Counted from the first letter of the stretch, positions 36,242 to 62,000 are shown. The stretch is 64,000 bases of DNA from Rhynchopus sp. YZ270_cl-10 (GCA_964035575.1 OZ037847.1:372001-436000); one strand, 5' to 3'. Numbers and translations are program-made. The notes: generated from the sequence alone by a model not told the origin.

Positions 36242-37116
36242 CACGTATGGCAAATGATAATATATTATGCGCTATTATGAGATCTCATAATACATGTGAT
36301 ATTATGCGCTATTATGTGCTATTATGTGCTATTATGTGCTATTATGTGCTATTATGTGCTATTATGCGCTATTATGCGCCAATTATGCGGCGTTATGCGC
36401 TCATTATGTGCCGTACCCCCCACCCCCCCACCCAAAAAAAGTCGCTCAGAAGTGGTCAAAAGTGCCCAAAACCGGGCGGAATTCGATTTTTGGGGTACAA
36501 ATGGGCCTATGGTGTGGTTTTTATTGACTTCAGGGGGGTTTCTTTGATTTATTACCTACTTCACGTTTTTTGACGGCTTAAGATACCTTGGGTGGGAAAA
36601 CCTTTGGTACCAGGTGCTTGACACTTTTTGAAACATGGTTCTAAGTTCCACCAAGTCCCTCTAAACACCCCGAAACCGCCTGGGTACCCCTCGGGATAGG
36701 TTCTGGGGTGAAAATATGTGGCTTTGGGGGCTTTTCTGGCCCCTGGCTCACACTGAGGCGTGATGGATGTGTGAGTTGCTCTATCTACGAGGGGTGGGCA
36801 GGTACAAGTTGTATGTACATTTTTGAAAAAAGCAGATACGGGGCTTCTTGAGGCTCAAAACTGCTCAAAACCGGGCGCAGATGGATTTTTGGACATCTGA
36901 GGGTGGTACTTTCTGGTTTGGGGCATTGGGGTCGGGCACATAATGAGCACATAATGAGCACATAATAGCGCATAATCATTATGCGCTATTATGTGCTATT
37001 ATGTGCTATTATGCGCTATTATGCATTATGCGATTATTATGAGCGCGCATAATAGCGCATAATGATCTCATAATTTATTATGAGATCTCATAATAAATTA
37101 TCATTTGCCATACGTG
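36242..37116. mobile_element. Nested non-autonomous element with CAC termini and 6-bp TSD
   Basis: 20-bp perfect TIR CACGTATGGCAAATGATAAT / ATTATCATTTGCCATACGTG. GAAAAT on both sides. An empty-site paralogous sequence ATCCTGAAAATCTTGATTT lies at 37581-37599. Confidence 0.85.
36264..36410. repeat. 10-bp minisatellite (ATTATGTGCT/ATTATGCGCT)n, subterminal in the nested element
   Basis: Directly visible tandem units. A second block in both orientations at ~36938-37095. Confidence 0.9.
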
Positions 37117-40100
37117 GAAAATCTTGATTTTTTTTTTTTTCTCTCGAAAAAACACGGGTCGGGAAAGATCTTTTTTTTTTTTTTTTTTTTCGAGAAAAAA
37201 AATCCTCTTCTCCCGAAAAAAAAAAAAAAAAAAAGATTTTTGGGAGAAAAAAAAAAAGAGAAAAGATTTGAAAATCCTGGGAAAATCCTGAAAAAATCCT
37301 GAAAAATCCTGGAAAAATCCATGAAATTTCATGAAAAATCTCGAGATCTTGAGAAATCTTTGAAAAAAAAAAAAAAGATTTTCAAAATCTTTTTTTTTTT
37401 TTTTCCCCAAAAAGATTTTTCAAAATCCCAAAAATCTTTTTTATCTTTTTTTTGAGAAAAAAAAGATTTTCAAGATCTTTTTCATCTTTTTTTCTCTTTT
37501 TTTCCTTTTTTTTCCTTTTTTTTTCAGGATTTTTCAAAGATCTCAAAGATCTCGAGAGATCCTGAAAAAAAAAGACAAAAATCCTGAAAATCTTGATTTT
37601 TTTTTTTTTTCTCCCGAGATTCTCGAAAAAAGACAAAAGATCTTTCCTGACCCGTGAAAAAAGACAAAAAAAGACAAAAGATCTTTCCTAACCCGTGTTT
37701 TTTGGCCATTTAAGCAGTAATTCCCGCCGAATAAAGTATACGTATACTTTAATAGCTCCCCCCCAGTAGTCATCGGGTTGTTTGTGCGTTGATAAAACAA
37801 CGTTGGCCAAAAAAGAGAAAAAAAAGAAGAAAAACTTGAAATAATGAAGGATGCTGTCTGCTCCTAGCCACATCTTTCAAATAATTTCAGGTTTTGGTAA
37901 GAGAGTAAGAAAAGAGGAGTATTGCGTATGAAAAAAACGCCTTTTTTTGAATACTTGGTTGTATTAGTGTAGATATCCGAGGATGAAATCCACTGTTCTA
38001 CATACGTTTTGTATTTTGTTATTTTTTTTTTTGAAACTCCCTCGATAAAGACAAAGCTTGTAAGATGAACCAGACGTTGTTGAAAATAAAATTTGGAAAT
38101 AAAAACAAAAAACCTGAATGTGTCTCCCAGATAAAAAAGCAACTAAACAACAAAGTGGATGAAAAAGGGAATGTATGAAGGGGTACTCGCATCCTACAAC
38201 TGATAGAGCACATCACAGAAATGTTTCTCTTTATAGTTCCCACCTCTGTGATACAGTGTCTATCAGCTAAGGTACGACATGCCAACGCTTCCTTGCAGAA
38301 TACAAGAAAGAAAGGTGGCAATATGGGTTGTAAAGCCTTTTTGACGGCAAAAACAAGGCAAACACAAAAAAAAACTAGATGAACAAATATGTATGGGGTA
38401 TTCGATAGTGTAGCCTATCAATACTAAAATGCTTGAAAGATTGAATGCGTCTCACGAGGGTGCGCACATCTTTCTAACGAATCAAAACATACGAAAAATG
38501 ATTTTTGTAAAACAATATGGTAAAAAACGCCTCTCGCAGGCACACAGACCATCCGTGGGTTATCGAAGCACGGAGTGTTGCTGCGCTTTTGGGTGTTGCT
38601 TGACAGAGGCACACAGCATTCCTTGGATTCAAGGTGCTGTACGAAAAAAGAAAAAGTAAGATGTGCCGCTAAATGCACCTACACATCTTTAAACACGAGC
38701 AAAAAATAGAATCGCCGTTTTGCAATTGTTGCGCATCGCTCAAACCGGAGAAACTGTTGTGTGAAGAAAACTTCAAGAAGAAAAAAACGGATACCGTTTC
38801 AAAACAAAGTTGGCAAAAAGTACCACACTCGAAAAAAAAACAAAAACAAAAGTTGTTTCCAATACTTTCGATTCTACAGAAGAGAACGATACTACAGAAC
38901 TTGATAGATGAATGTGTCTCACGTCCACACAGACACAGAGTTCTTTTCTTATCATTTTGCATGCGTGTCGTTTAACACATGCAGGGGGGTAAACACTTTC
39001 TGGGATATTTCTACTCGGTAAAGTGGTGGGTAGAAAATATGCCGAAAGCTGTCTCTTCGGAACCACGTTTGTTGAACGGTTCACTGGGAACGGAAACAGG
39101 GAATGGAGGAAAGGGGGAAAATAAAAAAAAGAGACCCTCGCTGACGCGAGAGCAAACTATTCGTTGGATGTAGGTTACAGTGAAGAAAAATAAAAAACGT
39201 TGGTATGTTGGTACAGATGCTTAGGATGAATTGCTATACTCCAAATATGTTTTGTGTCCAAAAACGTCGCCAAATTACATCAAAATCCGAAATCTGCTAA
39301 ACTTATCTGCACGCAAAACTATTTGGAGTACAGAATGATGGAGGTGTCCATCAGTATGTTGATCGTGCAATACGGGGAGCGGGATTTCACAACTTTTGAC
39401 AATTTTTCACACCCAAAAAAGTCAAGCAAAGCTGACAAAAGTTGGTGCACAGATGTGAAGAGTTGTGAAACCCCACCCTCGTACAGCATCAGTTGATGTA
39501 CAAAAATAAAATGTTAGCCTGCAAACACCCATGGGTATATGCAGGCACAAACCAAAAGAAAGCAAATAAGAAATGTAAAATTCATTGTGCAGCGCACAAC
39601 ATCTAATCGATCGAGAGTAAAAATAAAAAACAGTTTTGTGTAAGCTGAACCTAAGTCTCGCTCATCAAAACAAAAGGGGCGGGGGGGTGTTTGGTTGGTA
39701 TGAGCTGGAACCAGTCGACGATACCACGTCCAGCTGCAAAAACGTTGGCCTACAAAAAAATAGGAAAAAACAGGGGGGAAGCTTGCAAGATGAATGAACC
39801 ACACAACACAGGGGTACAGACATCATGGGTAAAGATAGGGTACAGTCCAGGAGACACAAAAACACCCCCATCCCCAACTTGACAACTTTCGGGAGTGTGT
39901 TCTCGGTTTCTCTCTCTCCCATCTGAGAGGGTGGTAAAAGAAACCGCGACACACCCCGAACAACAGACCATCTCCGACAAATCTGTTTTCAGAAAAAGAA
40001 GTACATTCCCTTTTCGGGTTCAAAGCTGGGGCGGTGTCTCAAATAAAAAAAGCTATTTTTTTGTTTGTTTTTTGGATCAATGTGTTTGGCTGCACATTCA

Positions 40101-40166
40101 TCAGTAAGATAGGCGTCACCTTACAACGTTGGTAGGTTGAGAAATGCTTCGAATATCAAACCCTTT

Positions 40167-43100
40167 CTAAGGCTCGTTCGCGGCCACAGGGGTTTGCACA
40201 TCGAATTCAAACCAGAGCTTGTCGCAGGTGATGATGTCGGTGGGTTCGAAGACGGTGTGGGTGCCGACCTGGGTGCCGTGGGTGGGTCCGCGGCAGTGGG
40301 AAGCATCGACACCGAGCTCGAGGAGGAACTTTGCGCCGACCTTGCCTTCGTCCTGCCAGCAGGGGAAGACGGACTTGGAGCAGGATCCGCTGTAGGCGTA
40401 GAGGCCGGGGGTCGTGCGTGAGACCTTCTCGCAGATGCCCTCGTTGTGGTGTGCAAGGCTGCCGTTGTACGTGAACTTCAGCGTCGCCTGCCCAGCGTCA
40501 AACGGCTTGTCCCTTGGCGCAAGAATCACCATGGCATCACCGTCCCAGTTCAACACAGGGGTGAAGGTGTCGTCACCCTGCGTCACCTCCAACTTCACAT
40601 TCGACAGATGCTTTGTGTTCAAGGTGAAGTCCCAGGCACGGTGGTTCAGCACCAAGTCCATGGTGCATTCCGCACGGAAGGTCTTCGTCGCAACGTCAGG
40701 GTCAATGCGGAGGCGGGTGTTCAAAGGGTACATCATCTGCGATGCGTTCGCTGCCGTTCTCGGGTCTGTGCCCCAAGAGAAGTCGCCGTTCTCGATGTTG
40801 ACAATCTGTGGGGCCGGGATCCCGTACTTCGCTTCGAGGATCTTCTCCATCTCCGTGAAGGCACCTTCCACCCAGCCTTGGGCTCCACTGTAGGCCTCAC
40901 CTGCAACGAAGACAGAGTCCCAGATGTGGGGCTGTCTGATGAAGGGCATCTTGTCGGGCACGAGGAAGCCTGCCTTCCATGCGTGGTAACCTCCTCCGAA
41001 GGGGTCGGATCCCCAGTCCTGGAAGGCAGCGGCGTAGGGGGTGCCGATCTTCTCCGCAACCTCTGGGGGGTGCATCTGCCTGAGCTGTGCAAGCCCCACC
41101 TCCACCATGCGCTGCGAAGGGACCGGGTACGACGGCAGGCTGTCGTGCGCCGCCTGAAGACGTGCGCTCTTCGCAATTGCCTTCGTCGGTGTCCCCTTGA
41201 AGGACTGCTCCGTCCCCTTGCTTGCAAGGATGTCCTTTGCCTTCTGCAGAACAGACTTCGTAAGCTTCTCCTTCAACACCTTCACCAGATCGCATCCGTG
41301 CTTCTCTGTGAAGTCACGCTGGATCGCAAGCCACTCCTTCAGGCTCGTCACCGCCTCCAGCACCTCAAAGATCGCAGCATCGTCGACAGTGCCGCTCATC
41401 GCAGTGTACAGACGGTCTGCAGGGGCGCCAGGGCATGTTGTGTTGTTGAAGTCGATCTTCTTGGCCGCAAGGATGTCCTTTGCTTTCGTCATTTCACATG
41501 CTGTGAGCTCCTCGGTGATGGCCTTGAGGAGGCTGCCGTCGTAGAAGGTGGGGTACTTCTGGGCGAAGTCGCGTTGCGTGGCACGCCAGTCGGCGGCACT
41601 GCGCATGGCAGAGAGCTCGTTGTAGAGGCCGTCCTCGTCGGTGCCGAAGCCCTTCATTGCCTTGTAGAGGCGGTCTGCCTTGCCGCTGTCGTGCTTGAAG
41701 ATGTCTGCTGTGGTGCTGGTGCTGGTCTGCACTCCGGTGTTGCCCACAATGTTGTATTTGTCAGAGCCGTAGCCGGTCTGGCTGTTGTAGCTCCCAGCGT
41801 CGCTTTCGAGCTGGATGCCCTCTGTCGACTCAAAGGTCTTCCAGAACGGCACCGTGCGCATGTCGTTGTAGGACGCAAGGAGGAGACCGTGCTGGTTCGT
41901 CTGGTCCACACCGAAGTAGTACGTCTGGCGCAGGGGAAGCGTCGTCACAGAGTGCGGGATGTTCGTGGTGGCGGAGTCGTCGCCAGGCTTGAGCCACCAC
42001 GGCTTCTCAAAGGCCATGAGCAGCTTCAGTGCTGGGGACGGGATGACTGCCTCAATGTTGCTGCGCCACTCCGCGTTGGCCGGGTTGTACTTCGAGAAGA
42101 ACGGCATCTCCTGGTCAAGGAGCTCAAGGGCACGGCGCGGCATCGCCAGGATAATGCTCTTGGCACGCACCTTCGAGGTCTTCGGGTGCTCCCCGTCGCG
42201 CAGGAACTGCGGTGGTGTCTTGAAGGTCAGCTCGTAGATGGGCTTCCCCGCCTTCGCACACCACACCTTCTCGAAGGACACCAGCGCGTTGCGTGTCGTG
42301 ATCGACCCGCCGTAGGAGAGGTACTTGCTTGCAGGCACCTTCAGCAGGTTCTCGAACCCGCCTGCGACAGTCTTGTACGTCGCGTCTGCGCCAAAGTCAC
42401 CCAAGATGTACGGGAAGGCCTCCGCCGCGTTCCAGTTCAGCGTGTTGCTGTAGTAGCCTCCCGAGTCTGCCACGAAGTTGTACGTCTCCTGGTCAAGCAT
42501 CTCAAGCATCAGGTTCCAGAACCCGATGGAGTACAGGAACTGGCCCGCGTAGATCGAGTCGCTCCCGTTGTCGGCCTTCACAAGGTACTGCACGGTGCGC
42601 TTGATCTCGTCCCACACACTCGTCTGTTCCTTCGTCGGCAGGCTGGTGATCTCGGCCATGTTGCACACAGTGTCCCCGTTGCAGAGCGTGTACTGGAAGT
42701 TTGCCGCACACAGGATGCGGTCCATCTGTGCCTTCAGGATTGTCTCCATTGTGTCGGTGATCTTGTTTCCAGACTCAGGGAAGTAGCGCACATCTGCAGT
42801 CTTGTTCGCAAAGTCCTCTGCCGTGTAGCGCGAGCCACGCAGGTAGAAGAGCGACTGGTCATCGGAACCCATCGGGAAGTTGATGGAGCGGAGCGAGCCT
42901 TCGGACTGGAACTTCTCGATGTAGCCGTTGACAAGCGTCTGCTGGTTCAGGTAGCGCATGCCGCCAAGCTCTGCCGCAACGTTCATGTTCGGGAGCTTGA
43001 TGGACCAGAGACGTCCGCAGACACGGTCGCTCATCTCGTAGATGCCTGTGGTCTGGTAGGGCAGCTCCGATGTGCCGCCTGCGTGCTCATCGGGCACAAC

Positions 43101-44492
43101 CATGCGCATGCCTGCGTACAGCCCTGCCGCACCTGCACCAATGATCGCCACGTCAACCTCCTCGTCCTGCGCAATCTCTGTCTTCATGTTCTTGTGCGTG
43201 TCAAACACGTAGTCCCAGTCCACCTTGAACTGCGCCGTCAGACGCTGCTCCAGGTTCGGGTCCGTTGCCTGCACCGGTGGTGTCGTGTCGTACTGGTTGA
43301 GTGCGTCGTACGGCTTCCCCTCGAGCATGTGTGCAATCCATTCTCCAAGTGTGGGGATGAACTTCCCTGCCCATCCCGACGTGTAGAGCACAATGTCCTT
43401 GTTGTTGGGCACCGTGCCAGGAAGGGTGTCGAGGAGCATTGCCTTGCTGGGGTCCAGCGGGAGGCCGATGATGCAGTAGGTGGTTGGGGTCCTGTCGTCC
43501 GCGTCAAGACCGGGCATGTGGTTGCGCACGAAGTCGACTGTGTACTTGATGGTCTCCGTCCCGTCGCTCTGGCGCTGCGAGGGGTCGGTGAGGATGCGGT
43601 CCTGCCAGCCGGGGCACACACGTGCGTAGCCGGGGGTGTCCCAGGAGGCTGACTCGGTGAAGCCGTAGAAGACCTTCTGGTCTGCTGCAGTCGGGCTGTC
43701 GGGCTCGTCAAAGACGTACCAGGTGTTGTCCGGCACCTTCGTCCTGTCCTTGATCTTGAAGTACGTCGACGACATCTCCCACGTCGTGATCGGTGCCTGC
43801 AGCCCCCACTCCGAGAGGATGCTGCGGTTCACGTACGCACCCCCCGCAATGACAAGCTTCTTTGTGGGGAACGACTGCGTCACGCCGCCGTTCTCTGCGA
43901 TGACGGTGATCCCACCCTCGACAGTCGAGGTGAAGGTGTTCACAGTCTGGTTTGCCATCAGGGTCACATTCTCCATCTCCCCCAGCACCTTGATCAGAAG
44001 CGCCTGGGTACCGTGCAGGTCGACCGACCCTCCGTCCTTCTGCAGGAACCCTGCATAGCTCTCAGGGAGGTTTGCCACGTACGGGTGCGCTGCAGTGATC
44101 TCAGCACCGTTCTGGTAAGGCGTGTACGCAAGCTTCGCCTCGTCCATGGCCTCCTCGGCAGCAGCGACGCCACCCTCCTCAGAGACAATCTGCGAGTTCC
44201 CGAACCAGAGCGAGCCCTCCTCATAGAAGACGGGGGGGAGACCATGCGCCTTCGCAAGCGCGTTGAACTCATCCCACTGCTCACGGGCCAGCTGCGCCAT
44301 GTTGATCATGTCCGGCTCGGTGTACTGCAGGCGCATCTGCCTGCTCTGTCCCGCAGAGCTCCCCTCCTGGTTCTCAAACTCAAACTGCTCCAAAACCAGA
44401 ACCTTCCTCTGTGTGCTCTCCTTCATCACAGCGTAGGCCGCAGAAAGACCAACAGGCCCTCCTCCGACAATCACAACATCGTATTTCTCCAT
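40167..44492 (-). CDS. Chimeric di-flavoprotein, copy 1: sarcosine oxidase-like + L-amino acid/amine oxidase with two inserted annexin repeats + M1 peptidase N-terminal domain (1441 aa)
   Basis: DVVIVGGGPVG..GSSAGQSRQMRLQY..YCIIG..SGWAGKFIP (MSOX/PIPOX family); DVAIIGAGAAG..EMSDRVCGRL..ELGGMRY..GEAYS..GWVEGA (flavin amine oxidase); LYKAMKGFGTDE (annexin); FTYNGSL..KSVFPCWQDEG..AKFLLEL (M1 N-domain). Confidence 0.93.
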   Translation of the reverse strand: MEKYDVVIVGGGPVGLSAAYAVMKESTQRKVLVLEQFEFENQEGSSAGQSRQMRLQYTEPDMINMAQLAREQWDEFNALAKAHGLPPVFYEEGSLWFGNSQIVSEEGGVAAAEEAMDEAKLAYTPYQNGAEITAAHPYVANLPESYAGFLQKDGGSVDLHGTQALLIKVLGEMENVTLMANQTVNTFTSTVEGGITVIAENGGVTQSFPTKKLVIAGGAYVNRSILSEWGLQAPITTWEMSSTYFKIKDRTKVPDNTWYVFDEPDSPTAADQKVFYGFTESASWDTPGYARVCPGWQDRILTDPSQRQSDGTETIKYTVDFVRNHMPGLDADDRTPTTYCIIGLPLDPSKAMLLDTLPGTVPNNKDIVLYTSGWAGKFIPTLGEWIAHMLEGKPYDALNQYDTTPPVQATDPNLEQRLTAQFKVDWDYVFDTHKNMKTEIAQDEEVDVAIIGAGAAGLYAGMRMVVPDEHAGGTSELPYQTTGIYEMSDRVCGRLWSIKLPNMNVAAELGGMRYLNQQTLVNGYIEKFQSEGSLRSINFPMGSDDQSLFYLRGSRYTAEDFANKTADVRYFPESGNKITDTMETILKAQMDRILCAANFQYTLCNGDTVCNMAEITSLPTKEQTSVWDEIKRTVQYLVKADNGSDSIYAGQFLYSIGFWNLMLEMLDQETYNFVADSGGYYSNTLNWNAAEAFPYILGDFGADATYKTVAGGFENLLKVPASKYLSYGGSITTRNALVSFEKVWCAKAGKPIYELTFKTPPQFLRDGEHPKTSKVRAKSIILAMPRRALELLDQEMPFFSKYNPANAEWRSNIEAVIPSPALKLLMAFEKPWWLKPGDDSATTNIPHSVTTLPLRQTYYFGVDQTNQHGLLLASYNDMRTVPFWKTFESTEGIQLESDAGSYNSQTGYGSDKYNIVGNTGVQTSTSTTADIFKHDSGKADRLYKAMKGFGTDEDGLYNELSAMRSAADWRATQRDFAQKYPTFYDGSLLKAITEELTACEMTKAKDILAAKKIDFNNTTCPGAPADRLYTAMSGTVDDAAIFEVLEAVTSLKEWLAIQRDFTEKHGCDLVKVLKEKLTKSVLQKAKDILASKGTEQSFKGTPTKAIAKSARLQAAHDSLPSYPVPSQRMVEVGLAQLRQMHPPEVAEKIGTPYAAAFQDWGSDPFGGGYHAWKAGFLVPDKMPFIRQPHIWDSVFVAGEAYSGAQGWVEGAFTEMEKILEAKYGIPAPQIVNIENGDFSWGTDPRTAANASQMMYPLNTRLRIDPDVATKTFRAECTMDLVLNHRAWDFTLNTKHLSNVKLEVTQGDDTFTPVLNWDGDAMVILAPRDKPFDAGQATLKFTYNGSLAHHNEGICEKVSRTTPGLYAYSGSCSKSVFPCWQDEGKVGAKFLLELGVDASHCRGPTHGTQVGTHTVFEPTDIITCDKLWFEFDVQTPVAANEP

Positions 44493-46458: not shown

Positions 46459-49400
46459 CTAAGGCTCGTTCGCGGCCACAGGGGTTTGCACATCGAATTC
46501 AAACCAGAGCTTGTCGCAGGTGATGATGTCGGTGGGTTCGAAGACGGTGTGGGTGCCGACCTGGGTGCCGTGGGTGGGTCCGCGGCAGTGGGAAGCATCG
46601 ACACCGAGCTCGAGGAGGAACTTTGCGCCGACCTTGCCTTCGTCCTGCCAGCAGGGGAAGACGGACTTGGAGCAGGATCCGCTGTAGGCGTAGAGGCCGG
46701 GGGTCGTGCGTGAGACCTTCTCGCAGATGCCCTCGTTGTGGTGTGCAAGGCTGCCGTTGTACGTGAACTTCAGCGTCGCCTGCCCAGCGTCAAACGGCTT
46801 GTCCCTTGGCGCAAGAATCACCATGGCATCACCGTCCCAGTTCAACACAGGGGTGAAGGTGTCGTCACCCTGCGTCACCTCCAACTTCACATTCGACAGA
46901 TGCTTTGTGTTCAAGGTGAAGTCCCAGGCACGGTGGTTCAGCACCAAGTCCATGGTGCATTCCGCACGGAAGGTCTTCGTCGCAACGTCAGGGTCAATGC
47001 GGAGGCGGGTGTTCAAAGGGTACATCATCTGCGATGCGTTCGCTGCCGTTCTCGGGTCTGTGCCCCAAGAGAAGTCGCCGTTCTCGATGTTGACAATCTG
47101 TGGGGCCGGGATCCCGTACTTCGCTTCGAGGATCTTCTCCATCTCCGTGAAGGCACCTTCCACCCAGCCTTGGGCTCCACTGTAGGCCTCACCTGCAACG
47201 AAGACAGAGTCCCAGATGTGGGGCTGTCTGATGAAGGGCATCTTGTCGGGCACGAGGAAGCCTGCCTTCCATGCGTGGTAACCTCCTCCGAAGGGGTCGG
47301 ATCCCCAGTCCTGGAAGGCAGCGGCGTAGGGGGTGCCGATCTTCTCCGCAACCTCTGGGGGGTGCATCTGCCTGAGCTGTGCAAGCCCCACCTCCACCAT
47401 GCGCTGCGAAGGGACCGGGTACGACGGCAGGCTGTCGTGCGCCGCCTGAAGACGTGCGCTCTTCGCAATTGCCTTCGTCGGTGTCCCCTTGAAGGACTGC
47501 TCCGTCCCCTTGCTTGCAAGGATGTCCTTTGCCTTCTGCAGAACAGACTTCGTAAGCTTCTCCTTCAACACCTTCACCAGATCGCATCCGTGCTTCTCTG
47601 TGAAGTCACGCTGGATCGCAAGCCACTCCTTCAGGCTCGTCACCGCCTCCAGCACCTCAAAGATCGCAGCATCGTCGACAGTGCCGCTCATCGCAGTGTA
47701 CAGACGGTCTGCAGGGGCGCCAGGGCATGTTGTGTTGTTGAAGTCGATCTTCTTGGCCGCAAGGATGTCCTTTGCTTTCGTCATTTCACATGCTGTGAGC
47801 TCCTCGGTGATGGCCTTGAGGAGGCTGCCGTCGTAGAAGGTGGGGTACTTCTGGGCGAAGTCGCGTTGCGTGGCACGCCAGTCGGCGGCACTGCGCATGG
47901 CAGAGAGCTCGTTGTAGAGGCCGTCCTCGTCGGTGCCGAAGCCCTTCATTGCCTTGTAGAGGCGGTCTGCCTTGCCGCTGTCGTGCTTGAAGATGTCTGC
48001 TGTGGTGCTGGTGCTGGTCTGCACTCCGGTGTTGCCCACAATGTTGTATTTGTCAGAGCCGTAGCCGGTCTGGCTGTTGTAGCTCCCAGCGTCGCTTTCG
48101 AGCTGGATGCCCTCTGTCGACTCAAAGGTCTTCCAGAACGGCACCGTGCGCATGTCGTTGTAGGACGCAAGGAGGAGACCGTGCTGGTTCGTCTGGTCCA
48201 CACCGAAGTAGTACGTCTGGCGCAGGGGAAGCGTCGTCACAGAGTGCGGGATGTTCGTGGTGGCGGAGTCGTCGCCAGGCTTGAGCCACCACGGCTTCTC
48301 AAAGGCCATGAGCAGCTTCAGTGCTGGGGACGGGATGACTGCCTCAATGTTGCTGCGCCACTCCGCGTTGGCCGGGTTGTACTTCGAGAAGAACGGCATC
48401 TCCTGGTCAAGGAGCTCAAGGGCACGGCGCGGCATCGCCAGGATAATGCTCTTGGCACGCACCTTCGAGGTCTTCGGGTGCTCCCCGTCGCGCAGGAACT
48501 GCGGTGGTGTCTTGAAGGTCAGCTCGTAGATGGGCTTCCCCGCCTTCGCACACCACACCTTCTCGAAGGACACCAGCGCGTTGCGTGTCGTGATCGACCC
48601 GCCGTAGGAGAGGTACTTGCTTGCAGGCACCTTCAGCAGGTTCTCGAACCCGCCTGCGACAGTCTTGTACGTCGCGTCTGCGCCAAAGTCACCCAAGATG
48701 TACGGGAAGGCCTCCGCCGCGTTCCAGTTCAGCGTGTTGCTGTAGTAGCCTCCCGAGTCTGCCACGAAGTTGTACGTCTCCTGGTCAAGCATCTCAAGCA
48801 TCAGGTTCCAGAACCCGATGGAGTACAGGAACTGGCCCGCGTAGATCGAGTCGCTCCCGTTGTCGGCCTTCACAAGGTACTGCACGGTGCGCTTGATCTC
48901 GTCCCACACACTCGTCTGTTCCTTCGTCGGCAGGCTGGTGATCTCGGCCATGTTGCACACAGTGTCCCCGTTGCAGAGCGTGTACTGGAAGTTTGCCGCA
49001 CACAGGATGCGGTCCATCTGTGCCTTCAGGATTGTCTCCATTGTGTCGGTGATCTTGTTTCCAGACTCAGGGAAGTAGCGCACATCTGCAGTCTTGTTCG
49101 CAAAGTCCTCTGCCGTGTAGCGCGAGCCACGCAGGTAGAAGAGCGACTGGTCATCGGAACCCATCGGGAAGTTGATGGAGCGGAGCGAGCCTTCGGACTG
49201 GAACTTCTCGATGTAGCCGTTGACAAGCGTCTGCTGGTTCAGGTAGCGCATGCCGCCAAGCTCTGCCGCAACGTTCATGTTCGGGAGCTTGATGGACCAG
49301 AGACGTCCGCAGACACGGTCGCTCATCTCGTAGATGCCTGTGGTCTGGTAGGGCAGCTCCGATGTGCCGCCTGCGTGCTCATCGGGCACAACCATGCGCA

Positions 49401-50784
49401 TGCCTGCGTACAGCCCTGCCGCACCTGCACCAATGATCGCCACGTCAACCTCCTCGTCCTGCGCAATCTCTGTCTTCATGTTCTTGTGCGTGTCAAACAC
49501 GTAGTCCCAGTCCACCTTGAACTGCGCCGTCAGACGCTGCTCCAGGTTCGGGTCCGTTGCCTGCACCGGTGGTGTCGTGTCGTACTGGTTGAGTGCGTCG
49601 TACGGCTTCCCCTCGAGCATGTGTGCAATCCATTCTCCAAGTGTGGGGATGAACTTCCCTGCCCATCCCGACGTGTAGAGCACAATGTCCTTGTTGTTGG
49701 GCACCGTGCCAGGAAGGGTGTCGAGGAGCATTGCCTTGCTGGGGTCCAGCGGGAGGCCGATGATGCAGTAGGTGGTTGGGGTCCTGTCGTCCGCGTCAAG
49801 ACCGGGCATGTGGTTGCGCACGAAGTCGACTGTGTACTTGATGGTCTCCGTCCCGTCGCTCTGGCGCTGCGAGGGGTCGGTGAGGATGCGGTCCTGCCAG
49901 CCGGGGCACACACGTGCGTAGCCGGGGGTGTCCCAGGAGGCTGACTCGGTGAAGCCGTAGAAGACCTTCTGGTCTGCTGCAGTCGGGCTGTCGGGCTCGT
50001 CAAAGACGTACCAGGTGTTGTCCGGCACCTTCGTCCTGTCCTTGATCTTGAAGTACGTCGACGACATCTCCCACGTCGTGATCGGTGCCTGCAGCCCCCA
50101 CTCCGAGAGGATGCTGCGGTTCACGTACGCACCCCCCGCAATGACAAGCTTCTTTGTGGGGAACGACTGCGTCACGCCGCCGTTCTCTGCGATGACGGTG
50201 ATCCCACCCTCGACAGTCGAGGTGAAGGTGTTCACAGTCTGGTTTGCCATCAGGGTCACATTCTCCATCTCCCCCAGCACCTTGATCAGAAGCGCCTGGG
50301 TACCGTGCAGGTCGACCGACCCTCCGTCCTTCTGCAGGAACCCTGCATAGCTCTCAGGGAGGTTTGCCACGTACGGGTGCGCTGCAGTGATCTCAGCACC
50401 GTTCTGGTAAGGCGTGTACGCAAGCTTCGCCTCGTCCATGGCCTCCTCGGCAGCAGCGACGCCACCCTCCTCAGAGACAATCTGCGAGTTCCCGAACCAG
50501 AGCGAGCCCTCCTCATAGAAGACGGGGGGGAGACCATGCGCCTTCGCAAGCGCGTTGAACTCATCCCACTGCTCACGGGCCAGCTGCGCCATGTTGATCA
50601 TGTCCGGCTCGGTGTACTGCAGGCGCATCTGCCTGCTCTGTCCCGCAGAGCTCCCCTCCTGGTTCTCAAACTCAAACTGCTCCAAAACCAGAACCTTCCT
50701 CTGTGTGCTCTCCTTCATCACAGCGTAGGCCGCAGAAAGACCAACAGGCCCTCCTCCGACAATCACAACATCGTATTTCTCCAT
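46459..50784 (-). CDS. Chimeric di-flavoprotein, copy 2
   Basis: Translation identical to copy 1. Confidence 0.93.
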   Translation of the reverse strand: MEKYDVVIVGGGPVGLSAAYAVMKESTQRKVLVLEQFEFENQEGSSAGQSRQMRLQYTEPDMINMAQLAREQWDEFNALAKAHGLPPVFYEEGSLWFGNSQIVSEEGGVAAAEEAMDEAKLAYTPYQNGAEITAAHPYVANLPESYAGFLQKDGGSVDLHGTQALLIKVLGEMENVTLMANQTVNTFTSTVEGGITVIAENGGVTQSFPTKKLVIAGGAYVNRSILSEWGLQAPITTWEMSSTYFKIKDRTKVPDNTWYVFDEPDSPTAADQKVFYGFTESASWDTPGYARVCPGWQDRILTDPSQRQSDGTETIKYTVDFVRNHMPGLDADDRTPTTYCIIGLPLDPSKAMLLDTLPGTVPNNKDIVLYTSGWAGKFIPTLGEWIAHMLEGKPYDALNQYDTTPPVQATDPNLEQRLTAQFKVDWDYVFDTHKNMKTEIAQDEEVDVAIIGAGAAGLYAGMRMVVPDEHAGGTSELPYQTTGIYEMSDRVCGRLWSIKLPNMNVAAELGGMRYLNQQTLVNGYIEKFQSEGSLRSINFPMGSDDQSLFYLRGSRYTAEDFANKTADVRYFPESGNKITDTMETILKAQMDRILCAANFQYTLCNGDTVCNMAEITSLPTKEQTSVWDEIKRTVQYLVKADNGSDSIYAGQFLYSIGFWNLMLEMLDQETYNFVADSGGYYSNTLNWNAAEAFPYILGDFGADATYKTVAGGFENLLKVPASKYLSYGGSITTRNALVSFEKVWCAKAGKPIYELTFKTPPQFLRDGEHPKTSKVRAKSIILAMPRRALELLDQEMPFFSKYNPANAEWRSNIEAVIPSPALKLLMAFEKPWWLKPGDDSATTNIPHSVTTLPLRQTYYFGVDQTNQHGLLLASYNDMRTVPFWKTFESTEGIQLESDAGSYNSQTGYGSDKYNIVGNTGVQTSTSTTADIFKHDSGKADRLYKAMKGFGTDEDGLYNELSAMRSAADWRATQRDFAQKYPTFYDGSLLKAITEELTACEMTKAKDILAAKKIDFNNTTCPGAPADRLYTAMSGTVDDAAIFEVLEAVTSLKEWLAIQRDFTEKHGCDLVKVLKEKLTKSVLQKAKDILASKGTEQSFKGTPTKAIAKSARLQAAHDSLPSYPVPSQRMVEVGLAQLRQMHPPEVAEKIGTPYAAAFQDWGSDPFGGGYHAWKAGFLVPDKMPFIRQPHIWDSVFVAGEAYSGAQGWVEGAFTEMEKILEAKYGIPAPQIVNIENGDFSWGTDPRTAANASQMMYPLNTRLRIDPDVATKTFRAECTMDLVLNHRAWDFTLNTKHLSNVKLEVTQGDDTFTPVLNWDGDAMVILAPRDKPFDAGQATLKFTYNGSLAHHNEGICEKVSRTTPGLYAYSGSCSKSVFPCWQDEGKVGAKFLLELGVDASHCRGPTHGTQVGTHTVFEPTDIITCDKLWFEFDVQTPVAANEP

Positions 50785-52750: not shown

Positions 52751-55700
52751 CTAAGGCTCGTTCGCGGCCACAGGGGTTTGCACATCGAATTCAAACCAGA
52801 GCTTGTCGCAGGTGATGATGTCGGTGGGTTCGAAGACGGTGTGGGTGCCGACCTGGGTGCCGTGGGTGGGTCCGCGGCAGTGGGAAGCATCGACACCGAG
52901 CTCGAGGAGGAACTTTGCGCCGACCTTGCCTTCGTCCTGCCAGCAGGGGAAGACGGACTTGGAGCAGGATCCGCTGTAGGCGTAGAGGCCGGGGGTCGTG
53001 CGTGAGACCTTCTCGCAGATGCCCTCGTTGTGGTGTGCAAGGCTGCCGTTGTACGTGAACTTCAGCGTCGCCTGCCCAGCGTCAAACGGCTTGTCCCTTG
53101 GCGCAAGAATCACCATGGCATCACCGTCCCAGTTCAACACAGGGGTGAAGGTGTCGTCACCCTGCGTCACCTCCAACTTCACATTCGACAGATGCTTTGT
53201 GTTCAAGGTGAAGTCCCAGGCACGGTGGTTCAGCACCAAGTCCATGGTGCATTCCGCACGGAAGGTCTTCGTCGCAACGTCAGGGTCAATGCGGAGGCGG
53301 GTGTTCAAAGGGTACATCATCTGCGATGCGTTCGCTGCCGTTCTCGGGTCTGTGCCCCAAGAGAAGTCGCCGTTCTCGATGTTGACAATCTGTGGGGCCG
53401 GGATCCCGTACTTCGCTTCGAGGATCTTCTCCATCTCCGTGAAGGCACCTTCCACCCAGCCTTGGGCTCCACTGTAGGCCTCACCTGCAACGAAGACAGA
53501 GTCCCAGATGTGGGGCTGTCTGATGAAGGGCATCTTGTCGGGCACGAGGAAGCCTGCCTTCCATGCGTGGTAACCTCCTCCGAAGGGGTCGGATCCCCAG
53601 TCCTGGAAGGCAGCGGCGTAGGGGGTGCCGATCTTCTCCGCAACCTCTGGGGGGTGCATCTGCCTGAGCTGTGCAAGCCCCACCTCCACCATGCGCTGCG
53701 AAGGGACCGGGTACGACGGCAGGCTGTCGTGCGCCGCCTGAAGACGTGCGCTCTTCGCAATTGCCTTCGTCGGTGTCCCCTTGAAGGACTGCTCCGTCCC
53801 CTTGCTTGCAAGGATGTCCTTTGCCTTCTGCAGAACAGACTTCGTAAGCTTCTCCTTCAACACCTTCACCAGATCGCATCCGTGCTTCTCTGTGAAGTCA
53901 CGCTGGATCGCAAGCCACTCCTTCAGGCTCGTCACCGCCTCCAGCACCTCAAAGATCGCAGCATCGTCGACAGTGCCGCTCATCGCAGTGTACAGACGGT
54001 CTGCAGGGGCGCCAGGGCATGTTGTGTTGTTGAAGTCGATCTTCTTGGCCGCAAGGATGTCCTTTGCTTTCGTCATTTCACATGCTGTGAGCTCCTCGGT
54101 GATGGCCTTGAGGAGGCTGCCGTCGTAGAAGGTGGGGTACTTCTGGGCGAAGTCGCGTTGCGTGGCACGCCAGTCGGCGGCACTGCGCATGGCAGAGAGC
54201 TCGTTGTAGAGGCCGTCCTCGTCGGTGCCGAAGCCCTTCATTGCCTTGTAGAGGCGGTCTGCCTTGCCGCTGTCGTGCTTGAAGATGTCTGCTGTGGTGC
54301 TGGTGCTGGTCTGCACTCCGGTGTTGCCCACAATGTTGTATTTGTCAGAGCCGTAGCCGGTCTGGCTGTTGTAGCTCCCAGCGTCGCTTTCGAGCTGGAT
54401 GCCCTCTGTCGACTCAAAGGTCTTCCAGAACGGCACCGTGCGCATGTCGTTGTAGGACGCAAGGAGGAGACCGTGCTGGTTCGTCTGGTCCACACCGAAG
54501 TAGTACGTCTGGCGCAGGGGAAGCGTCGTCACAGAGTGCGGGATGTTCGTGGTGGCGGAGTCGTCGCCAGGCTTGAGCCACCACGGCTTCTCAAAGGCCA
54601 TGAGCAGCTTCAGTGCTGGGGACGGGATGACTGCCTCAATGTTGCTGCGCCACTCCGCGTTGGCCGGGTTGTACTTCGAGAAGAACGGCATCTCCTGGTC
54701 AAGGAGCTCAAGGGCACGGCGCGGCATCGCCAGGATAATGCTCTTGGCACGCACCTTCGAGGTCTTCGGGTGCTCCCCGTCGCGCAGGAACTGCGGTGGT
54801 GTCTTGAAGGTCAGCTCGTAGATGGGCTTCCCCGCCTTCGCACACCACACCTTCTCGAAGGACACCAGCGCGTTGCGTGTCGTGATCGACCCGCCGTAGG
54901 AGAGGTACTTGCTTGCAGGCACCTTCAGCAGGTTCTCGAACCCGCCTGCGACAGTCTTGTACGTCGCGTCTGCGCCAAAGTCACCCAAGATGTACGGGAA
55001 GGCCTCCGCCGCGTTCCAGTTCAGCGTGTTGCTGTAGTAGCCTCCCGAGTCTGCCACGAAGTTGTACGTCTCCTGGTCAAGCATCTCAAGCATCAGGTTC
55101 CAGAACCCGATGGAGTACAGGAACTGGCCCGCGTAGATCGAGTCGCTCCCGTTGTCGGCCTTCACAAGGTACTGCACGGTGCGCTTGATCTCGTCCCACA
55201 CACTCGTCTGTTCCTTCGTCGGCAGGCTGGTGATCTCGGCCATGTTGCACACAGTGTCCCCGTTGCAGAGCGTGTACTGGAAGTTTGCCGCACACAGGAT
55301 GCGGTCCATCTGTGCCTTCAGGATTGTCTCCATTGTGTCGGTGATCTTGTTTCCAGACTCAGGGAAGTAGCGCACATCTGCAGTCTTGTTCGCAAAGTCC
55401 TCTGCCGTGTAGCGCGAGCCACGCAGGTAGAAGAGCGACTGGTCATCGGAACCCATCGGGAAGTTGATGGAGCGGAGCGAGCCTTCGGACTGGAACTTCT
55501 CGATGTAGCCGTTGACAAGCGTCTGCTGGTTCAGGTAGCGCATGCCGCCAAGCTCTGCCGCAACGTTCATGTTCGGGAGCTTGATGGACCAGAGACGTCC
55601 GCAGACACGGTCGCTCATCTCGTAGATGCCTGTGGTCTGGTAGGGCAGCTCCGATGTGCCGCCTGCGTGCTCATCGGGCACAACCATGCGCATGCCTGCG

Positions 55701-57076
55701 TACAGCCCTGCCGCACCTGCACCAATGATCGCCACGTCAACCTCCTCGTCCTGCGCAATCTCTGTCTTCATGTTCTTGTGCGTGTCAAACACGTAGTCCC
55801 AGTCCACCTTGAACTGCGCCGTCAGACGCTGCTCCAGGTTCGGGTCCGTTGCCTGCACCGGTGGTGTCGTGTCGTACTGGTTGAGTGCGTCGTACGGCTT
55901 CCCCTCGAGCATGTGTGCAATCCATTCTCCAAGTGTGGGGATGAACTTCCCTGCCCATCCCGACGTGTAGAGCACAATGTCCTTGTTGTTGGGCACCGTG
56001 CCAGGAAGGGTGTCGAGGAGCATTGCCTTGCTGGGGTCCAGCGGGAGGCCGATGATGCAGTAGGTGGTTGGGGTCCTGTCGTCCGCGTCAAGACCGGGCA
56101 TGTGGTTGCGCACGAAGTCGACTGTGTACTTGATGGTCTCCGTCCCGTCGCTCTGGCGCTGCGAGGGGTCGGTGAGGATGCGGTCCTGCCAGCCGGGGCA
56201 CACACGTGCGTAGCCGGGGGTGTCCCAGGAGGCTGACTCGGTGAAGCCGTAGAAGACCTTCTGGTCTGCTGCAGTCGGGCTGTCGGGCTCGTCAAAGACG
56301 TACCAGGTGTTGTCCGGCACCTTCGTCCTGTCCTTGATCTTGAAGTACGTCGACGACATCTCCCACGTCGTGATCGGTGCCTGCAGCCCCCACTCCGAGA
56401 GGATGCTGCGGTTCACGTACGCACCCCCCGCAATGACAAGCTTCTTTGTGGGGAACGACTGCGTCACGCCGCCGTTCTCTGCGATGACGGTGATCCCACC
56501 CTCGACAGTCGAGGTGAAGGTGTTCACAGTCTGGTTTGCCATCAGGGTCACATTCTCCATCTCCCCCAGCACCTTGATCAGAAGCGCCTGGGTACCGTGC
56601 AGGTCGACCGACCCTCCGTCCTTCTGCAGGAACCCTGCATAGCTCTCAGGGAGGTTTGCCACGTACGGGTGCGCTGCAGTGATCTCAGCACCGTTCTGGT
56701 AAGGCGTGTACGCAAGCTTCGCCTCGTCCATGGCCTCCTCGGCAGCAGCGACGCCACCCTCCTCAGAGACAATCTGCGAGTTCCCGAACCAGAGCGAGCC
56801 CTCCTCATAGAAGACGGGGGGGAGACCATGCGCCTTCGCAAGCGCGTTGAACTCATCCCACTGCTCACGGGCCAGCTGCGCCATGTTGATCATGTCCGGC
56901 TCGGTGTACTGCAGGCGCATCTGCCTGCTCTGTCCCGCAGAGCTCCCCTCCTGGTTCTCAAACTCAAACTGCTCCAAAACCAGAACCTTCCTCTGTGTGC
57001 TCTCCTTCATCACAGCGTAGGCCGCAGAAAGACCAACAGGCCCTCCTCCGACAATCACAACATCGTATTTCTCCAT
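52751..57076 (-). CDS. Chimeric di-flavoprotein, copy 3
   Basis: Translation identical to copy 1. Confidence 0.93.
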   Translation of the reverse strand: MEKYDVVIVGGGPVGLSAAYAVMKESTQRKVLVLEQFEFENQEGSSAGQSRQMRLQYTEPDMINMAQLAREQWDEFNALAKAHGLPPVFYEEGSLWFGNSQIVSEEGGVAAAEEAMDEAKLAYTPYQNGAEITAAHPYVANLPESYAGFLQKDGGSVDLHGTQALLIKVLGEMENVTLMANQTVNTFTSTVEGGITVIAENGGVTQSFPTKKLVIAGGAYVNRSILSEWGLQAPITTWEMSSTYFKIKDRTKVPDNTWYVFDEPDSPTAADQKVFYGFTESASWDTPGYARVCPGWQDRILTDPSQRQSDGTETIKYTVDFVRNHMPGLDADDRTPTTYCIIGLPLDPSKAMLLDTLPGTVPNNKDIVLYTSGWAGKFIPTLGEWIAHMLEGKPYDALNQYDTTPPVQATDPNLEQRLTAQFKVDWDYVFDTHKNMKTEIAQDEEVDVAIIGAGAAGLYAGMRMVVPDEHAGGTSELPYQTTGIYEMSDRVCGRLWSIKLPNMNVAAELGGMRYLNQQTLVNGYIEKFQSEGSLRSINFPMGSDDQSLFYLRGSRYTAEDFANKTADVRYFPESGNKITDTMETILKAQMDRILCAANFQYTLCNGDTVCNMAEITSLPTKEQTSVWDEIKRTVQYLVKADNGSDSIYAGQFLYSIGFWNLMLEMLDQETYNFVADSGGYYSNTLNWNAAEAFPYILGDFGADATYKTVAGGFENLLKVPASKYLSYGGSITTRNALVSFEKVWCAKAGKPIYELTFKTPPQFLRDGEHPKTSKVRAKSIILAMPRRALELLDQEMPFFSKYNPANAEWRSNIEAVIPSPALKLLMAFEKPWWLKPGDDSATTNIPHSVTTLPLRQTYYFGVDQTNQHGLLLASYNDMRTVPFWKTFESTEGIQLESDAGSYNSQTGYGSDKYNIVGNTGVQTSTSTTADIFKHDSGKADRLYKAMKGFGTDEDGLYNELSAMRSAADWRATQRDFAQKYPTFYDGSLLKAITEELTACEMTKAKDILAAKKIDFNNTTCPGAPADRLYTAMSGTVDDAAIFEVLEAVTSLKEWLAIQRDFTEKHGCDLVKVLKEKLTKSVLQKAKDILASKGTEQSFKGTPTKAIAKSARLQAAHDSLPSYPVPSQRMVEVGLAQLRQMHPPEVAEKIGTPYAAAFQDWGSDPFGGGYHAWKAGFLVPDKMPFIRQPHIWDSVFVAGEAYSGAQGWVEGAFTEMEKILEAKYGIPAPQIVNIENGDFSWGTDPRTAANASQMMYPLNTRLRIDPDVATKTFRAECTMDLVLNHRAWDFTLNTKHLSNVKLEVTQGDDTFTPVLNWDGDAMVILAPRDKPFDAGQATLKFTYNGSLAHHNEGICEKVSRTTPGLYAYSGSCSKSVFPCWQDEGKVGAKFLLELGVDASHCRGPTHGTQVGTHTVFEPTDIITCDKLWFEFDVQTPVAANEP

Positions 57077-59042: not shown

Positions 59043-62000
59043 CTAAGGCTCGTTCGCGGCCACAGGGGTTTGCACATCGAATTCAAACCAGAGCTTGTCG
59101 CAGGTGATGATGTCGGTGGGTTCGAAGACGGTGTGGGTGCCGACCTGGGTGCCGTGGGTGGGTCCGCGGCAGTGGGAAGCATCGACACCGAGCTCGAGGA
59201 GGAACTTTGCGCCGACCTTGCCTTCGTCCTGCCAGCAGGGGAAGACGGACTTGGAGCAGGATCCGCTGTAGGCGTAGAGGCCGGGGGTCGTGCGTGAGAC
59301 CTTCTCGCAGATGCCCTCGTTGTGGTGTGCAAGGCTGCCGTTGTACGTGAACTTCAGCGTCGCCTGCCCAGCGTCAAACGGCTTGTCCCTTGGCGCAAGA
59401 ATCACCATGGCATCACCGTCCCAGTTCAACACAGGGGTGAAGGTGTCGTCACCCTGCGTCACCTCCAACTTCACATTCGACAGATGCTTTGTGTTCAAGG
59501 TGAAGTCCCAGGCACGGTGGTTCAGCACCAAGTCCATGGTGCATTCCGCACGGAAGGTCTTCGTCGCAACGTCAGGGTCAATGCGGAGGCGGGTGTTCAA
59601 AGGGTACATCATCTGCGATGCGTTCGCTGCCGTTCTCGGGTCTGTGCCCCAAGAGAAGTCGCCGTTCTCGATGTTGACAATCTGTGGGGCCGGGATCCCG
59701 TACTTCGCTTCGAGGATCTTCTCCATCTCCGTGAAGGCACCTTCCACCCAGCCTTGGGCTCCACTGTAGGCCTCACCTGCAACGAAGACAGAGTCCCAGA
59801 TGTGGGGCTGTCTGATGAAGGGCATCTTGTCGGGCACGAGGAAGCCTGCCTTCCATGCGTGGTAACCTCCTCCGAAGGGGTCGGATCCCCAGTCCTGGAA
59901 GGCAGCGGCGTAGGGGGTGCCGATCTTCTCCGCAACCTCTGGGGGGTGCATCTGCCTGAGCTGTGCAAGCCCCACCTCCACCATGCGCTGCGAAGGGACC
60001 GGGTACGACGGCAGGCTGTCGTGCGCCGCCTGAAGACGTGCGCTCTTCGCAATTGCCTTCGTCGGTGTCCCCTTGAAGGACTGCTCCGTCCCCTTGCTTG
60101 CAAGGATGTCCTTTGCCTTCTGCAGAACAGACTTCGTAAGCTTCTCCTTCAACACCTTCACCAGATCGCATCCGTGCTTCTCTGTGAAGTCACGCTGGAT
60201 CGCAAGCCACTCCTTCAGGCTCGTCACCGCCTCCAGCACCTCAAAGATCGCAGCATCGTCGACAGTGCCGCTCATCGCAGTGTACAGACGGTCTGCAGGG
60301 GCGCCAGGGCATGTTGTGTTGTTGAAGTCGATCTTCTTGGCCGCAAGGATGTCCTTTGCTTTCGTCATTTCACATGCTGTGAGCTCCTCGGTGATGGCCT
60401 TGAGGAGGCTGCCGTCGTAGAAGGTGGGGTACTTCTGGGCGAAGTCGCGTTGCGTGGCACGCCAGTCGGCGGCACTGCGCATGGCAGAGAGCTCGTTGTA
60501 GAGGCCGTCCTCGTCGGTGCCGAAGCCCTTCATTGCCTTGTAGAGGCGGTCTGCCTTGCCGCTGTCGTGCTTGAAGATGTCTGCTGTGGTGCTGGTGCTG
60601 GTCTGCACTCCGGTGTTGCCCACAATGTTGTATTTGTCAGAGCCGTAGCCGGTCTGGCTGTTGTAGCTCCCAGCGTCGCTTTCGAGCTGGATGCCCTCTG
60701 TCGACTCAAAGGTCTTCCAGAACGGCACCGTGCGCATGTCGTTGTAGGACGCAAGGAGGAGACCGTGCTGGTTCGTCTGGTCCACACCGAAGTAGTACGT
60801 CTGGCGCAGGGGAAGCGTCGTCACAGAGTGCGGGATGTTCGTGGTGGCGGAGTCGTCGCCAGGCTTGAGCCACCACGGCTTCTCAAAGGCCATGAGCAGC
60901 TTCAGTGCTGGGGACGGGATGACTGCCTCAATGTTGCTGCGCCACTCCGCGTTGGCCGGGTTGTACTTCGAGAAGAACGGCATCTCCTGGTCAAGGAGCT
61001 CAAGGGCACGGCGCGGCATCGCCAGGATAATGCTCTTGGCACGCACCTTCGAGGTCTTCGGGTGCTCCCCGTCGCGCAGGAACTGCGGTGGTGTCTTGAA
61101 GGTCAGCTCGTAGATGGGCTTCCCCGCCTTCGCACACCACACCTTCTCGAAGGACACCAGCGCGTTGCGTGTCGTGATCGACCCGCCGTAGGAGAGGTAC
61201 TTGCTTGCAGGCACCTTCAGCAGGTTCTCGAACCCGCCTGCGACAGTCTTGTACGTCGCGTCTGCGCCAAAGTCACCCAAGATGTACGGGAAGGCCTCCG
61301 CCGCGTTCCAGTTCAGCGTGTTGCTGTAGTAGCCTCCCGAGTCTGCCACGAAGTTGTACGTCTCCTGGTCAAGCATCTCAAGCATCAGGTTCCAGAACCC
61401 GATGGAGTACAGGAACTGGCCCGCGTAGATCGAGTCGCTCCCGTTGTCGGCCTTCACAAGGTACTGCACGGTGCGCTTGATCTCGTCCCACACACTCGTC
61501 TGTTCCTTCGTCGGCAGGCTGGTGATCTCGGCCATGTTGCACACAGTGTCCCCGTTGCAGAGCGTGTACTGGAAGTTTGCCGCACACAGGATGCGGTCCA
61601 TCTGTGCCTTCAGGATTGTCTCCATTGTGTCGGTGATCTTGTTTCCAGACTCAGGGAAGTAGCGCACATCTGCAGTCTTGTTCGCAAAGTCCTCTGCCGT
61701 GTAGCGCGAGCCACGCAGGTAGAAGAGCGACTGGTCATCGGAACCCATCGGGAAGTTGATGGAGCGGAGCGAGCCTTCGGACTGGAACTTCTCGATGTAG
61801 CCGTTGACAAGCGTCTGCTGGTTCAGGTAGCGCATGCCGCCAAGCTCTGCCGCAACGTTCATGTTCGGGAGCTTGATGGACCAGAGACGTCCGCAGACAC
61901 GGTCGCTCATCTCGTAGATGCCTGTGGTCTGGTAGGGCAGCTCCGATGTGCCGCCTGCGTGCTCATCGGGCACAACCATGCGCATGCCTGCGTACAGCCC

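Follow-up and report, generated by a model that had tools for sequence, protein, structure and literature searches.

The minus-strand open reading frame (ORF) at 40167..44492 of a 64,000-nucleotide stretch of Rhynchopus sp. YZ270_cl-10 (GCA_964035575.1 OZ037847.1:372001-436000; the whole stretch is called the window below) encodes a 1441-aa chain that joins two flavo-oxidases, an annexin-like insert and a peptidase M1 N-terminal-like (M1-N) tail. The reading modestly favoured here is that this fused enzyme works in two steps, starting from lysine or a closely related diamino compound and ending in picolinate, or the corresponding pyridine acid, with release of peroxide. An earlier note made from the DNA had described an intron-free ORF with two GxGxxG sites, and the frame is indeed uninterrupted, with the sites at aa 10 and aa 452. 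The two flavo-oxidase domains of that note, from the MSOX and amine-oxidase superfamilies, are recovered by Pfam as DAO (aa 5-388, E 2e-24) and Amino_oxidase (aa 484-875, E 1e-15); its annexin repeats are likewise detected (Annexin, aa 939-996, E 1e-6), and can now be placed inside the second oxidase domain.

The N-terminal oxidase domain (aa 1-430; 43203..44492, minus strand as for all parts of the gene) appears on its sequence to be of the NikD type, an assignment based on the NikD match and the kept residues. The best PDB match to aa 2-389 is NikD, at E 1.8e-52, against 2.2e-12 for MSOX and 2.2e-9 for MTOX. Residues R51, R54, E106, Y276, C340, W374 and K377 correspond to NikD R50, R53, E101, Y258, C321, W355 and K358, and the NikD pocket residues are conserved in all four diplonemid proteins. 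Functional roles are presumed for NikD Cys321, Trp355, Lys358, Arg53, Glu101 and Tyr258, and flavin adenine dinucleotide (FAD) is predicted to be bound covalently at Cys340. The Cys and Lys pointed out in the earlier note are these C340 (in TTYCIIG) and K377, which together with W374 lies in GWAGKF; its placement of the domain in the sarcosine/pipecolate/N-methyltryptophan oxidase family gives way to NikD on the E values above, and where sarcosine oxidase carries a His and a gap the domain has the Trp and Glu typical of NikD. Monomeric sarcosine, N-methyltryptophan and pipecolate oxidases were considered and rejected, as the curated models fall under their cut-offs (soxA_mon 101 of 480 bits, MTOX 87 of 257, AmaA 24 of 600); the GHGFK motif of this group is not present in the domain, GWAGK standing in its place.

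The second domain appears, again from residue-level comparison, to be of the L-lysine alpha-oxidase type. It is made up of an N-terminal part (aa 443-888; 41829..43166), which keeps R513, the plug loop GGYY at 678-681, Y695 and K823, and a C-terminal part (aa 1099-1232; 40797..41198), which keeps Y1169, Q1205, G1206 and W1207. The best PDB match to aa 443-888 plus 1107-1229 is an ancestral L-lysine oxidase (7EIH, E 2e-101), and a predicted model of aa 436-1441, with a mean predicted local distance difference test (pLDDT) score of 75, gives 7EII as its top fold match, with a template modelling (TM) score of 0.85 by target length. A single-sequence model of aa 865-1441 reached a pLDDT of 38 and was not used. 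The set of AncLLysO active-site residues used for comparison (R76, K387, the plug loop GGYY, Y268, Y516, Q552, G553 and W554), as named in PMC8405998, is kept throughout; this paper and the others below are cited from excerpts. Glu493 of arginine oxidase (AROD) is absent, with Ala1171 at that position as in AncLLysO.

Because the N-terminal domain is of the NikD type and the second domain of the L-lysine alpha-oxidase type, the first step most likely falls to the second domain. The product of lysine alpha-oxidase cyclises to piperideine-2-carboxylate (P2C). In the proposed scheme, the second domain would oxidise the alpha-amino group of lysine with release of NH3 and H2O2, its product would cyclise to P2C, and the N-terminal domain would then oxidise P2C twice to picolinate with two more H2O2, giving three H2O2 over the whole route from lysine through P2C to picolinate. 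An equivalent cyclisation to P2C after transamination has been described (PMC9854754), and in nikkomycin synthesis NikD-type enzymes turn lysine-derived P2C into picolinate (PMC4021061). AncLLysO without catalase yields mainly the decarboxylated product 5-aminopentanoate (66%; PMC8405998), and the fusion may serve to hand on, possibly by channelling, an intermediate that would otherwise be decarboxylated by free H2O2. The two assignments imply the reverse of the order put forward in the earlier note, from N-methyl or cyclic imino acid to amino acid to keto acid, while its expectation of peroxide production and its passing mention of lysine/pipecolate are probably right.

The same coupling of oxidases recurs in bacteria. 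A full-length search returned 37 matches, namely this protein, two diplonemid proteins and 34 two-domain fusions, and every fusion with a taxon name is bacterial; among the matches listed in the shorter-protein search (120 of 125), none exceeded 44% identity and none was named as eukaryotic. Genome loci were located with patterns from the lysine-oxidase half only (n=55), 21 being close relatives and 20 of these having upstream DNA. A NikD-like gene accompanies 16 of the 20, fused in two and directly upstream in 14, versus 2 of 32 distant loci. Counted among the 16 is L006 (1-8295), labelled Rhizobium sp. CSW-27 and treated here as staphylococcal DNA; it is probably a contaminant, its gene lengths and identities equalling those of S. 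pasteuri plasmid genes, followed by mobC and a relaxase. Queries with the NikD domain matched 3, 2 and 1 genomes of 401 each, and in all six a gene of the lysine-oxidase family is either fused to the match or follows it directly; two of these matches also belong to the earlier locus set, and one comes from the unpublished G006. The pair is rare and patchy, at about one genome in 200 among those sampled, and four loci couple a NikD-like gene to the other, AncLLysO2-like subfamily with a Gln anchor. By sequence, the two-oxidase core is not unique and occurs in many bacteria, both as fusions and as operons. The earlier note had not recognised the architecture from any described protein; this does not hold for the core, and stands for the four-module form, which was found only here. 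Formation of picolinate from lysine by the bacterial pair is considered quite probable.

No conserved third gene was seen among the scanned bacterial flanks, save one weakly linked group in five loci (L005 371-1264, L013 7101-7946, L014 10033-11598, L018 10998-12542, L049 5456-6742), which is uncharacterised and gave one faint THAP4-like heme-binding match. At L049 277-5413 a NikD-like gene is flanked by two distant amine-oxidase genes and does not sit beside a close lysine oxidase; a tyrosinase-domain gene (L064 4498-5808) is convergent to a NikD-like and lysine-oxidase pair; and in Flavobacterium sp. FlaQc-48 (L014 8001-8126 and L057) a short NikD-like remnant lies upstream of an intact lysine oxidase.

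In the plasmid search, five of the six matches are staphylococcal and have both oxidase genes adjacent, with the anchor Glu and the NikD-site Asp intact in the two pairs checked. On pWBG4 (NZ_KX149096.1; L068 / L069) the short-chain dehydrogenase, NikD-like and lysine-oxidase genes occupy 11978-15508, the dehydrogenase being directly upstream of the oxidase operon, and the same oxidase pair is carried by four other staphylococcal plasmids. According to PMC4993578, E. coli acquires a diffusible pigment from a 5.7-kb ClaI piece of pWBG4 on which dipA-dipC lie. The ClaI map of the plasmid has six fragments, only one of which is of that size (11286-16999, 5713 bp), and besides the short-chain dehydrogenase and both oxidase genes it carries a regulator gene, a small toxin-antitoxin gene and a hypothetical one; the size of the fragment and its number of genes make the dehydrogenase and the oxidases the likely dipA-C. 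As the oxidase pair lies in this pigment-conferring fragment, it likely makes a diffusible small molecule, which is not itself identified by this. The staphylococcal diffusible pigment is said to have been first reported in 1985. On a Scytonema plasmid (L070 1-6632), a gene of the lysine-oxidase type stands close to NRPS (non-ribosomal peptide synthetase) and JmjC genes, with no NikD-like gene beside it.

The closest relatives of the Rhynchopus protein are those of Rhynchopus humris (78% identical in the alignment) and Diplonema japonicum (68%), which are single ORFs of 1244 and 1253 aa in Trinity transcript assemblies and carry both oxidases and the M1-N tail. These ORFs support a single mRNA for the oxidase fusion in the relatives, in forms without the insert. 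In both domain trees, which are midpoint-rooted without an outgroup and carry only supports from the Shimodaira-Hasegawa-like approximate likelihood ratio test (SH-aLRT), the diplonemids form one group (SH-aLRT 100), and this group joins a Kordia-containing fused clade with support of 99-100 for the NikD domain and 95 for the lysine-oxidase domain. Fused and separate forms are intermingled in the trees, suggesting repeated fusion or splitting of the oxidase genes. A bacterial origin of the fusion gene is likely, its direction being read from the distribution: the gene was likely received already fused from a Flavobacteriaceae-like bacterium, the M1-N tail would have been gained in a diplonemid ancestor, and in this Rhynchopus lineage two annexin-like repeats of the host would then have entered the gene, which would have been multiplied to four copies. 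A transferred 'sarcosine oxidase' listed in a recent diplonemid preprint, as far as its excerpts go, could be this fusion gene. The supplements on D. papillatum hold no picolin, homarine or pipecol entries, and this species is not among the sequence matches.

Several observations count against the lysine-to-picolinate reading. The N-terminal domain is only distantly identical to NikD, and no assayed member was found for its NikD-like clade. The position of NikD Asp276, presumably near the substrate, is Gly295 in all four diplonemids, Ala in four sister-clade bacterial proteins and Asp in the remaining bacterial rows. Four of the 20 close lysine-oxidase loci are without an intact NikD-like partner, one of them keeping a remnant; the FastTree tree of the lysine-oxidase domain does not give the sister grouping of diplonemids and the Kordia-containing clade; and the diplonemid branches are long (1.4-1.9). 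In the second domain, the site of the epsilon-amine anchor (Glu383 of AncLLysO, Gln357 of AncLLysO2) is Ser819 (42036..42038) in the Rhynchopus protein and Ser in all four diplonemids, where the 138 bacterial homologues have Glu (125) or Gln (13). The E383D variant of AncLLysO is without measurable activity (PMC8405998), and Q357N in AncLLysO2 drops kcat/Km from 57.4 to 1.6, about 36-fold (PMC9730747). No compensating acid was identified for Ser819: five diplonemid-specific acidic positions exist, none placed in the pocket. This serine is the weightiest finding against plain lysine as the substrate. The diplonemid protein rather probably keeps the bacterial order of steps, with the second domain first; the chance that unmodified lysine remains its chief substrate is put at even.

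The diplonemid substrate may have shifted because the anchor is Ser in all four proteins, and the alternative that best survives holds that the order of steps is the same and that Ser819 widens the pocket for 5-hydroxylysine, N-epsilon-methyl-lysine, diaminopimelate or thialysine, with hydroxypicolinate, homarine, dipicolinate or a sulfur ketimine product as the outcome. A Ser fixed where all 138 bacterial homologues have Glu or Gln, together with the retention of R513, K823, GGYY, Y695, Y1169 and W1207, is what such a shift would leave, and 5-hydroxylysine ranks second among the substrates of AncLLysO and CaLLysO (PMC8405998). As the NikD-like domain is 74-80% identical among diplonemid proteins, a cyclic substrate is probably still made. 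However, no diplonemid-only change appears in the pocket of the NikD-like domain at the checked sites, the papers listed on homarine biosynthesis with picolin and lysine are, by title, all on animal metabolomics, and free modified lysines are generally known to be scarce; a shift to one of these substrates is rated unlikely.

Loss of the anchor might instead have turned the second domain into a general L-amino-acid oxidase (LAAO), the two domains acting independently as a broad-specificity generator of peroxide; a peroxide generator was also among the options of the earlier note. The E493A variant of arginine oxidase is broadened to Phe, Leu and Met (PMC11694665), and the fourfold amplification fits a high demand, as does a GC content at third codon positions (GC3) of 0.81, compared with 0.44-0.73 in nine neighbouring genes. 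This is nonetheless quite improbable, as the pocket-narrowing aromatic residues are kept and every one of the four diplonemid proteins retains an intact NikD-like domain within the fusion. The chain begins directly with a Rossmann strand, and neither a signal peptide nor a peroxisomal targeting signal (PTS1) is visible by eye (no predictor was used), unlike in secreted defence LAAOs, which makes the escapin/achacin analogy of the earlier note a weak one. Slightly less probable still is a role in lysine catabolism, in which a separate reductase takes P2C to pipecolate and the N-terminal domain, as a pipecolate oxidase, converts this to piperideine-6-carboxylate (P6C), from which aminoadipate follows. 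The short-chain dehydrogenase directly upstream in the staphylococcal operon could be such a reductase and the N-terminal domain does lie within the MSOX/PIPOX superfamily, but no reductase or other third gene is conserved in the scanned flanks, the pipecolate oxidase model AmaA matches just aa 426-464, far below its cut-off, the NikD-type Trp and Glu mentioned above speak against it, and with the middle step missing from the chain there would be less reason for a fusion.

The fusion gene is present in four tandem copies with identical coding sequences and a period of 6292 bp: copy 1 at 40167..44492 and, on the same minus strand, copies 2 to 4 at 46459..50784, 52751..57076 and 59043..63368. 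The units are 99.9% alike, with small spacer differences between copies. At the downstream edge lie degenerate spacer remnants (38164..39578, strand unassigned) in pieces 90-96% identical, and upstream of copy 4 the DNA departs from the repeat near 63531, for which reasons the array looks bounded on both sides, at four copies. In a comparison of four sequencing runs, single contigs from two of them, which belong to different studies and one of which may be the window's own source, cover the ORF wholly with 0 differences, and a 6295-bp contig closes on itself, as expected for a tandem unit. The neighbouring genes are eukaryotic (Xpo1, F-box, WD40) and on the strand of the fusion gene. An origin of the four-module ORF in misassembly or bacterial contamination, to which the identical copies and the bacterial nature of the nearest non-diplonemid relatives might point, is barely credible in view of these contigs, neighbours and differing spacers, the orthologues in the R. 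humris and D. japonicum transcript assemblies, and the diplonemid proteins among the best relatives of the insert.

The insert of about 200 aa within the lysine-oxidase domain (41199..41822) comprises a low-confidence linker and two annexin-like repeats (aa 935-1094), as against the four-repeat core of annexins. Aligned with annexin VI, repeat 1 keeps MKGFGT at 946-951 and the cap Glu995, a GxGT loop and cap acid being presumably the consensus of the annexin type II Ca2+ site; repeat 2 has neither. The insert is missing from the other three diplonemid proteins and from the bacterial homologues, so that annexin-like repeats occur only in this protein among them, and an Atlas search with it gave no usable match. 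Its closest relatives are repeat-rich proteins, 4 of 10 looked up being named diplonemid proteins. Large proteins of one family (P0197-P0293) contain between 1 and 10 divergent annexin-like repeats, in some cases alongside C2, ferlin, WW or aminotransferase domains; those members that are named are diplonemid. The insert would confer Ca2+-dependent membrane binding, and the enzyme would likely be used to supply peroxide and a metal chelator, either in the cytosol or when recruited to a membrane; this might serve in defence, feeding or metal handling.

The tail (aa 1256-1441; 40167..40727) is an M1-N-like beta domain without the catalytic domain and is common to all four diplonemid proteins. 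The Pfam match to Peptidase_M1_N (aa 1256-1398, E 2.5e-5) scores 24.9 bits, slightly below the 25.8 cut-off, and the Atlas score of the tail to Peptidase_M1_N clusters is 0.95; a sequence search against the PDB gave no significant match. In the predicted model the pLDDT is 70-89 in the first half and <50 in the remainder. The HExxH zinc motif is absent in all four diplonemid proteins, the chain stopping before the catalytic domain, in line with the non-catalytic aminopeptidase tail proposed earlier. A search of longer proteins with the M1-N tail (396 candidates) returned only this protein and that of R. humris.

Elsewhere in the window, nitronate monooxygenase, alpha-galactosidase and FMO-like genes near the array (18906-19997, 22292-23509 and 31136-32812) are possibly further bacterial acquisitions. 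Short motifs in the spacer at 45029-45263 match many other contigs in all four runs, suggesting a dispersed repeat. An opposite-strand open frame of 1014 aa (40608-43652, plus strand) is probably only a by-product of the high GC3 in the coding strand. The region 35900-37600 is AT-rich, hairpin-like and of low complexity, with sub-threshold Rfam matches only; a scan of 35000-46500 gave 24 Rfam matches, every one below the gathering score, and no tRNA.

Both enzyme types and the logic of lysine to P2C to picolinate are already known. The oxidase-only coupling, the fusion, the diplonemid form and the link to the pigment were not found described in the literature searched, the scope of which left out most subscription papers. 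The reading that two oxidases take lysine to picolinate proposes a specific function for bacterial operons and fusions labelled only 'FAD-dependent oxidoreductase' and a chemistry for the pWBG4 pigment genes, and it would give the characterised lysine oxidases of the Chryseobacterium type a physiological partner; if true, it would also provide a single-chain, aminotransferase-free picolinate synthase useful in biocatalysis. Diplonemids are abundant marine protists, and this would be a case of a whole two-step pathway acquired in a single transfer and afterwards reshaped by the addition of host domains, by a change of pocket and by amplification in tandem, in contrast to the mostly piecemeal, single-gene transfers described in the excerpts of the recent preprint. 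A broader and doubtful proposal is that the NikD-like and lysine alpha-oxidase pair constitutes a so far unrecognised way, using oxygen alone, of making picolinate from lysine, which is scattered over several bacterial phyla and supplies the staphylococcal pigment precursor, that diplonemids took up the fused gene and retooled its pocket for a modified lysine, possibly giving hydroxypicolinate or homarine, and that in this lineage the enzyme came to release chelator and peroxide at membranes to which Ca2+ recruits it.

In comparing the protein to known systems, likeness to the annexin-like repeat proteins of diplonemids lies in the repeats, which are up to ~40% identical in Namystynia, Lacrimia, Sulcionema and Hemistasia. 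Two further matches also carry C2 or ferlin domains; none of the 34 such proteins scanned has an oxidase domain, and the fusion protein has just two repeats, one of them degenerate. The uncharacterised bacterial fusions of 956-1055 aa (Aquimarina, Tenacibaculum, Kordia, Echinicola, Saprospiraceae) share the domain order, are ~36-41% identical across the N-terminal 60% of the chain and likely represent the donor group, but differ in having the anchor Glu in 33 of 34 (Gln in one) and no match to the annexin insert or M1-N tail. AncLLysO and CaLLysO (PDB 7EIH, 7EII) are the best sequence and fold match to the second domain, with the catalytic positions kept, and differ by Glu383 in place of Ser, by the 200-aa insert and by the fusion to a NikD-like domain; the excerpted text of PMC8405998 does not mention the NikD-like gene that is seen here upstream in Chryseobacterium and Flavobacterium loci. 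The dipA-dipC locus of the S. aureus plasmid pWBG4 resembles the fusion in having a NikD-like and then a lysine-oxidase gene, with every checked site intact, and differs in that the genes are separate, accompanied by a short-chain dehydrogenase and annotated merely as FAD-dependent oxidoreductases. NikD itself, the Streptomyces P2C oxidase (PDB 2OLN/2Q6U), is the best match to the N-terminal domain by sequence and kept positions, and together with NikC/SanL of nikkomycin synthesis it offers the same logic of lysine to P2C to picolinate. In that pathway, however, P2C is made by a pyridoxal phosphate (PLP)-dependent aminotransferase and picolinate passes to a coenzyme A (CoA) ligase, and no ligase was seen among the bacterial neighbour genes scanned around the NikD-like and lysine-oxidase pairs; in the diplonemid protein the partner is an oxidase within one chain, and D276 is replaced by Gly.

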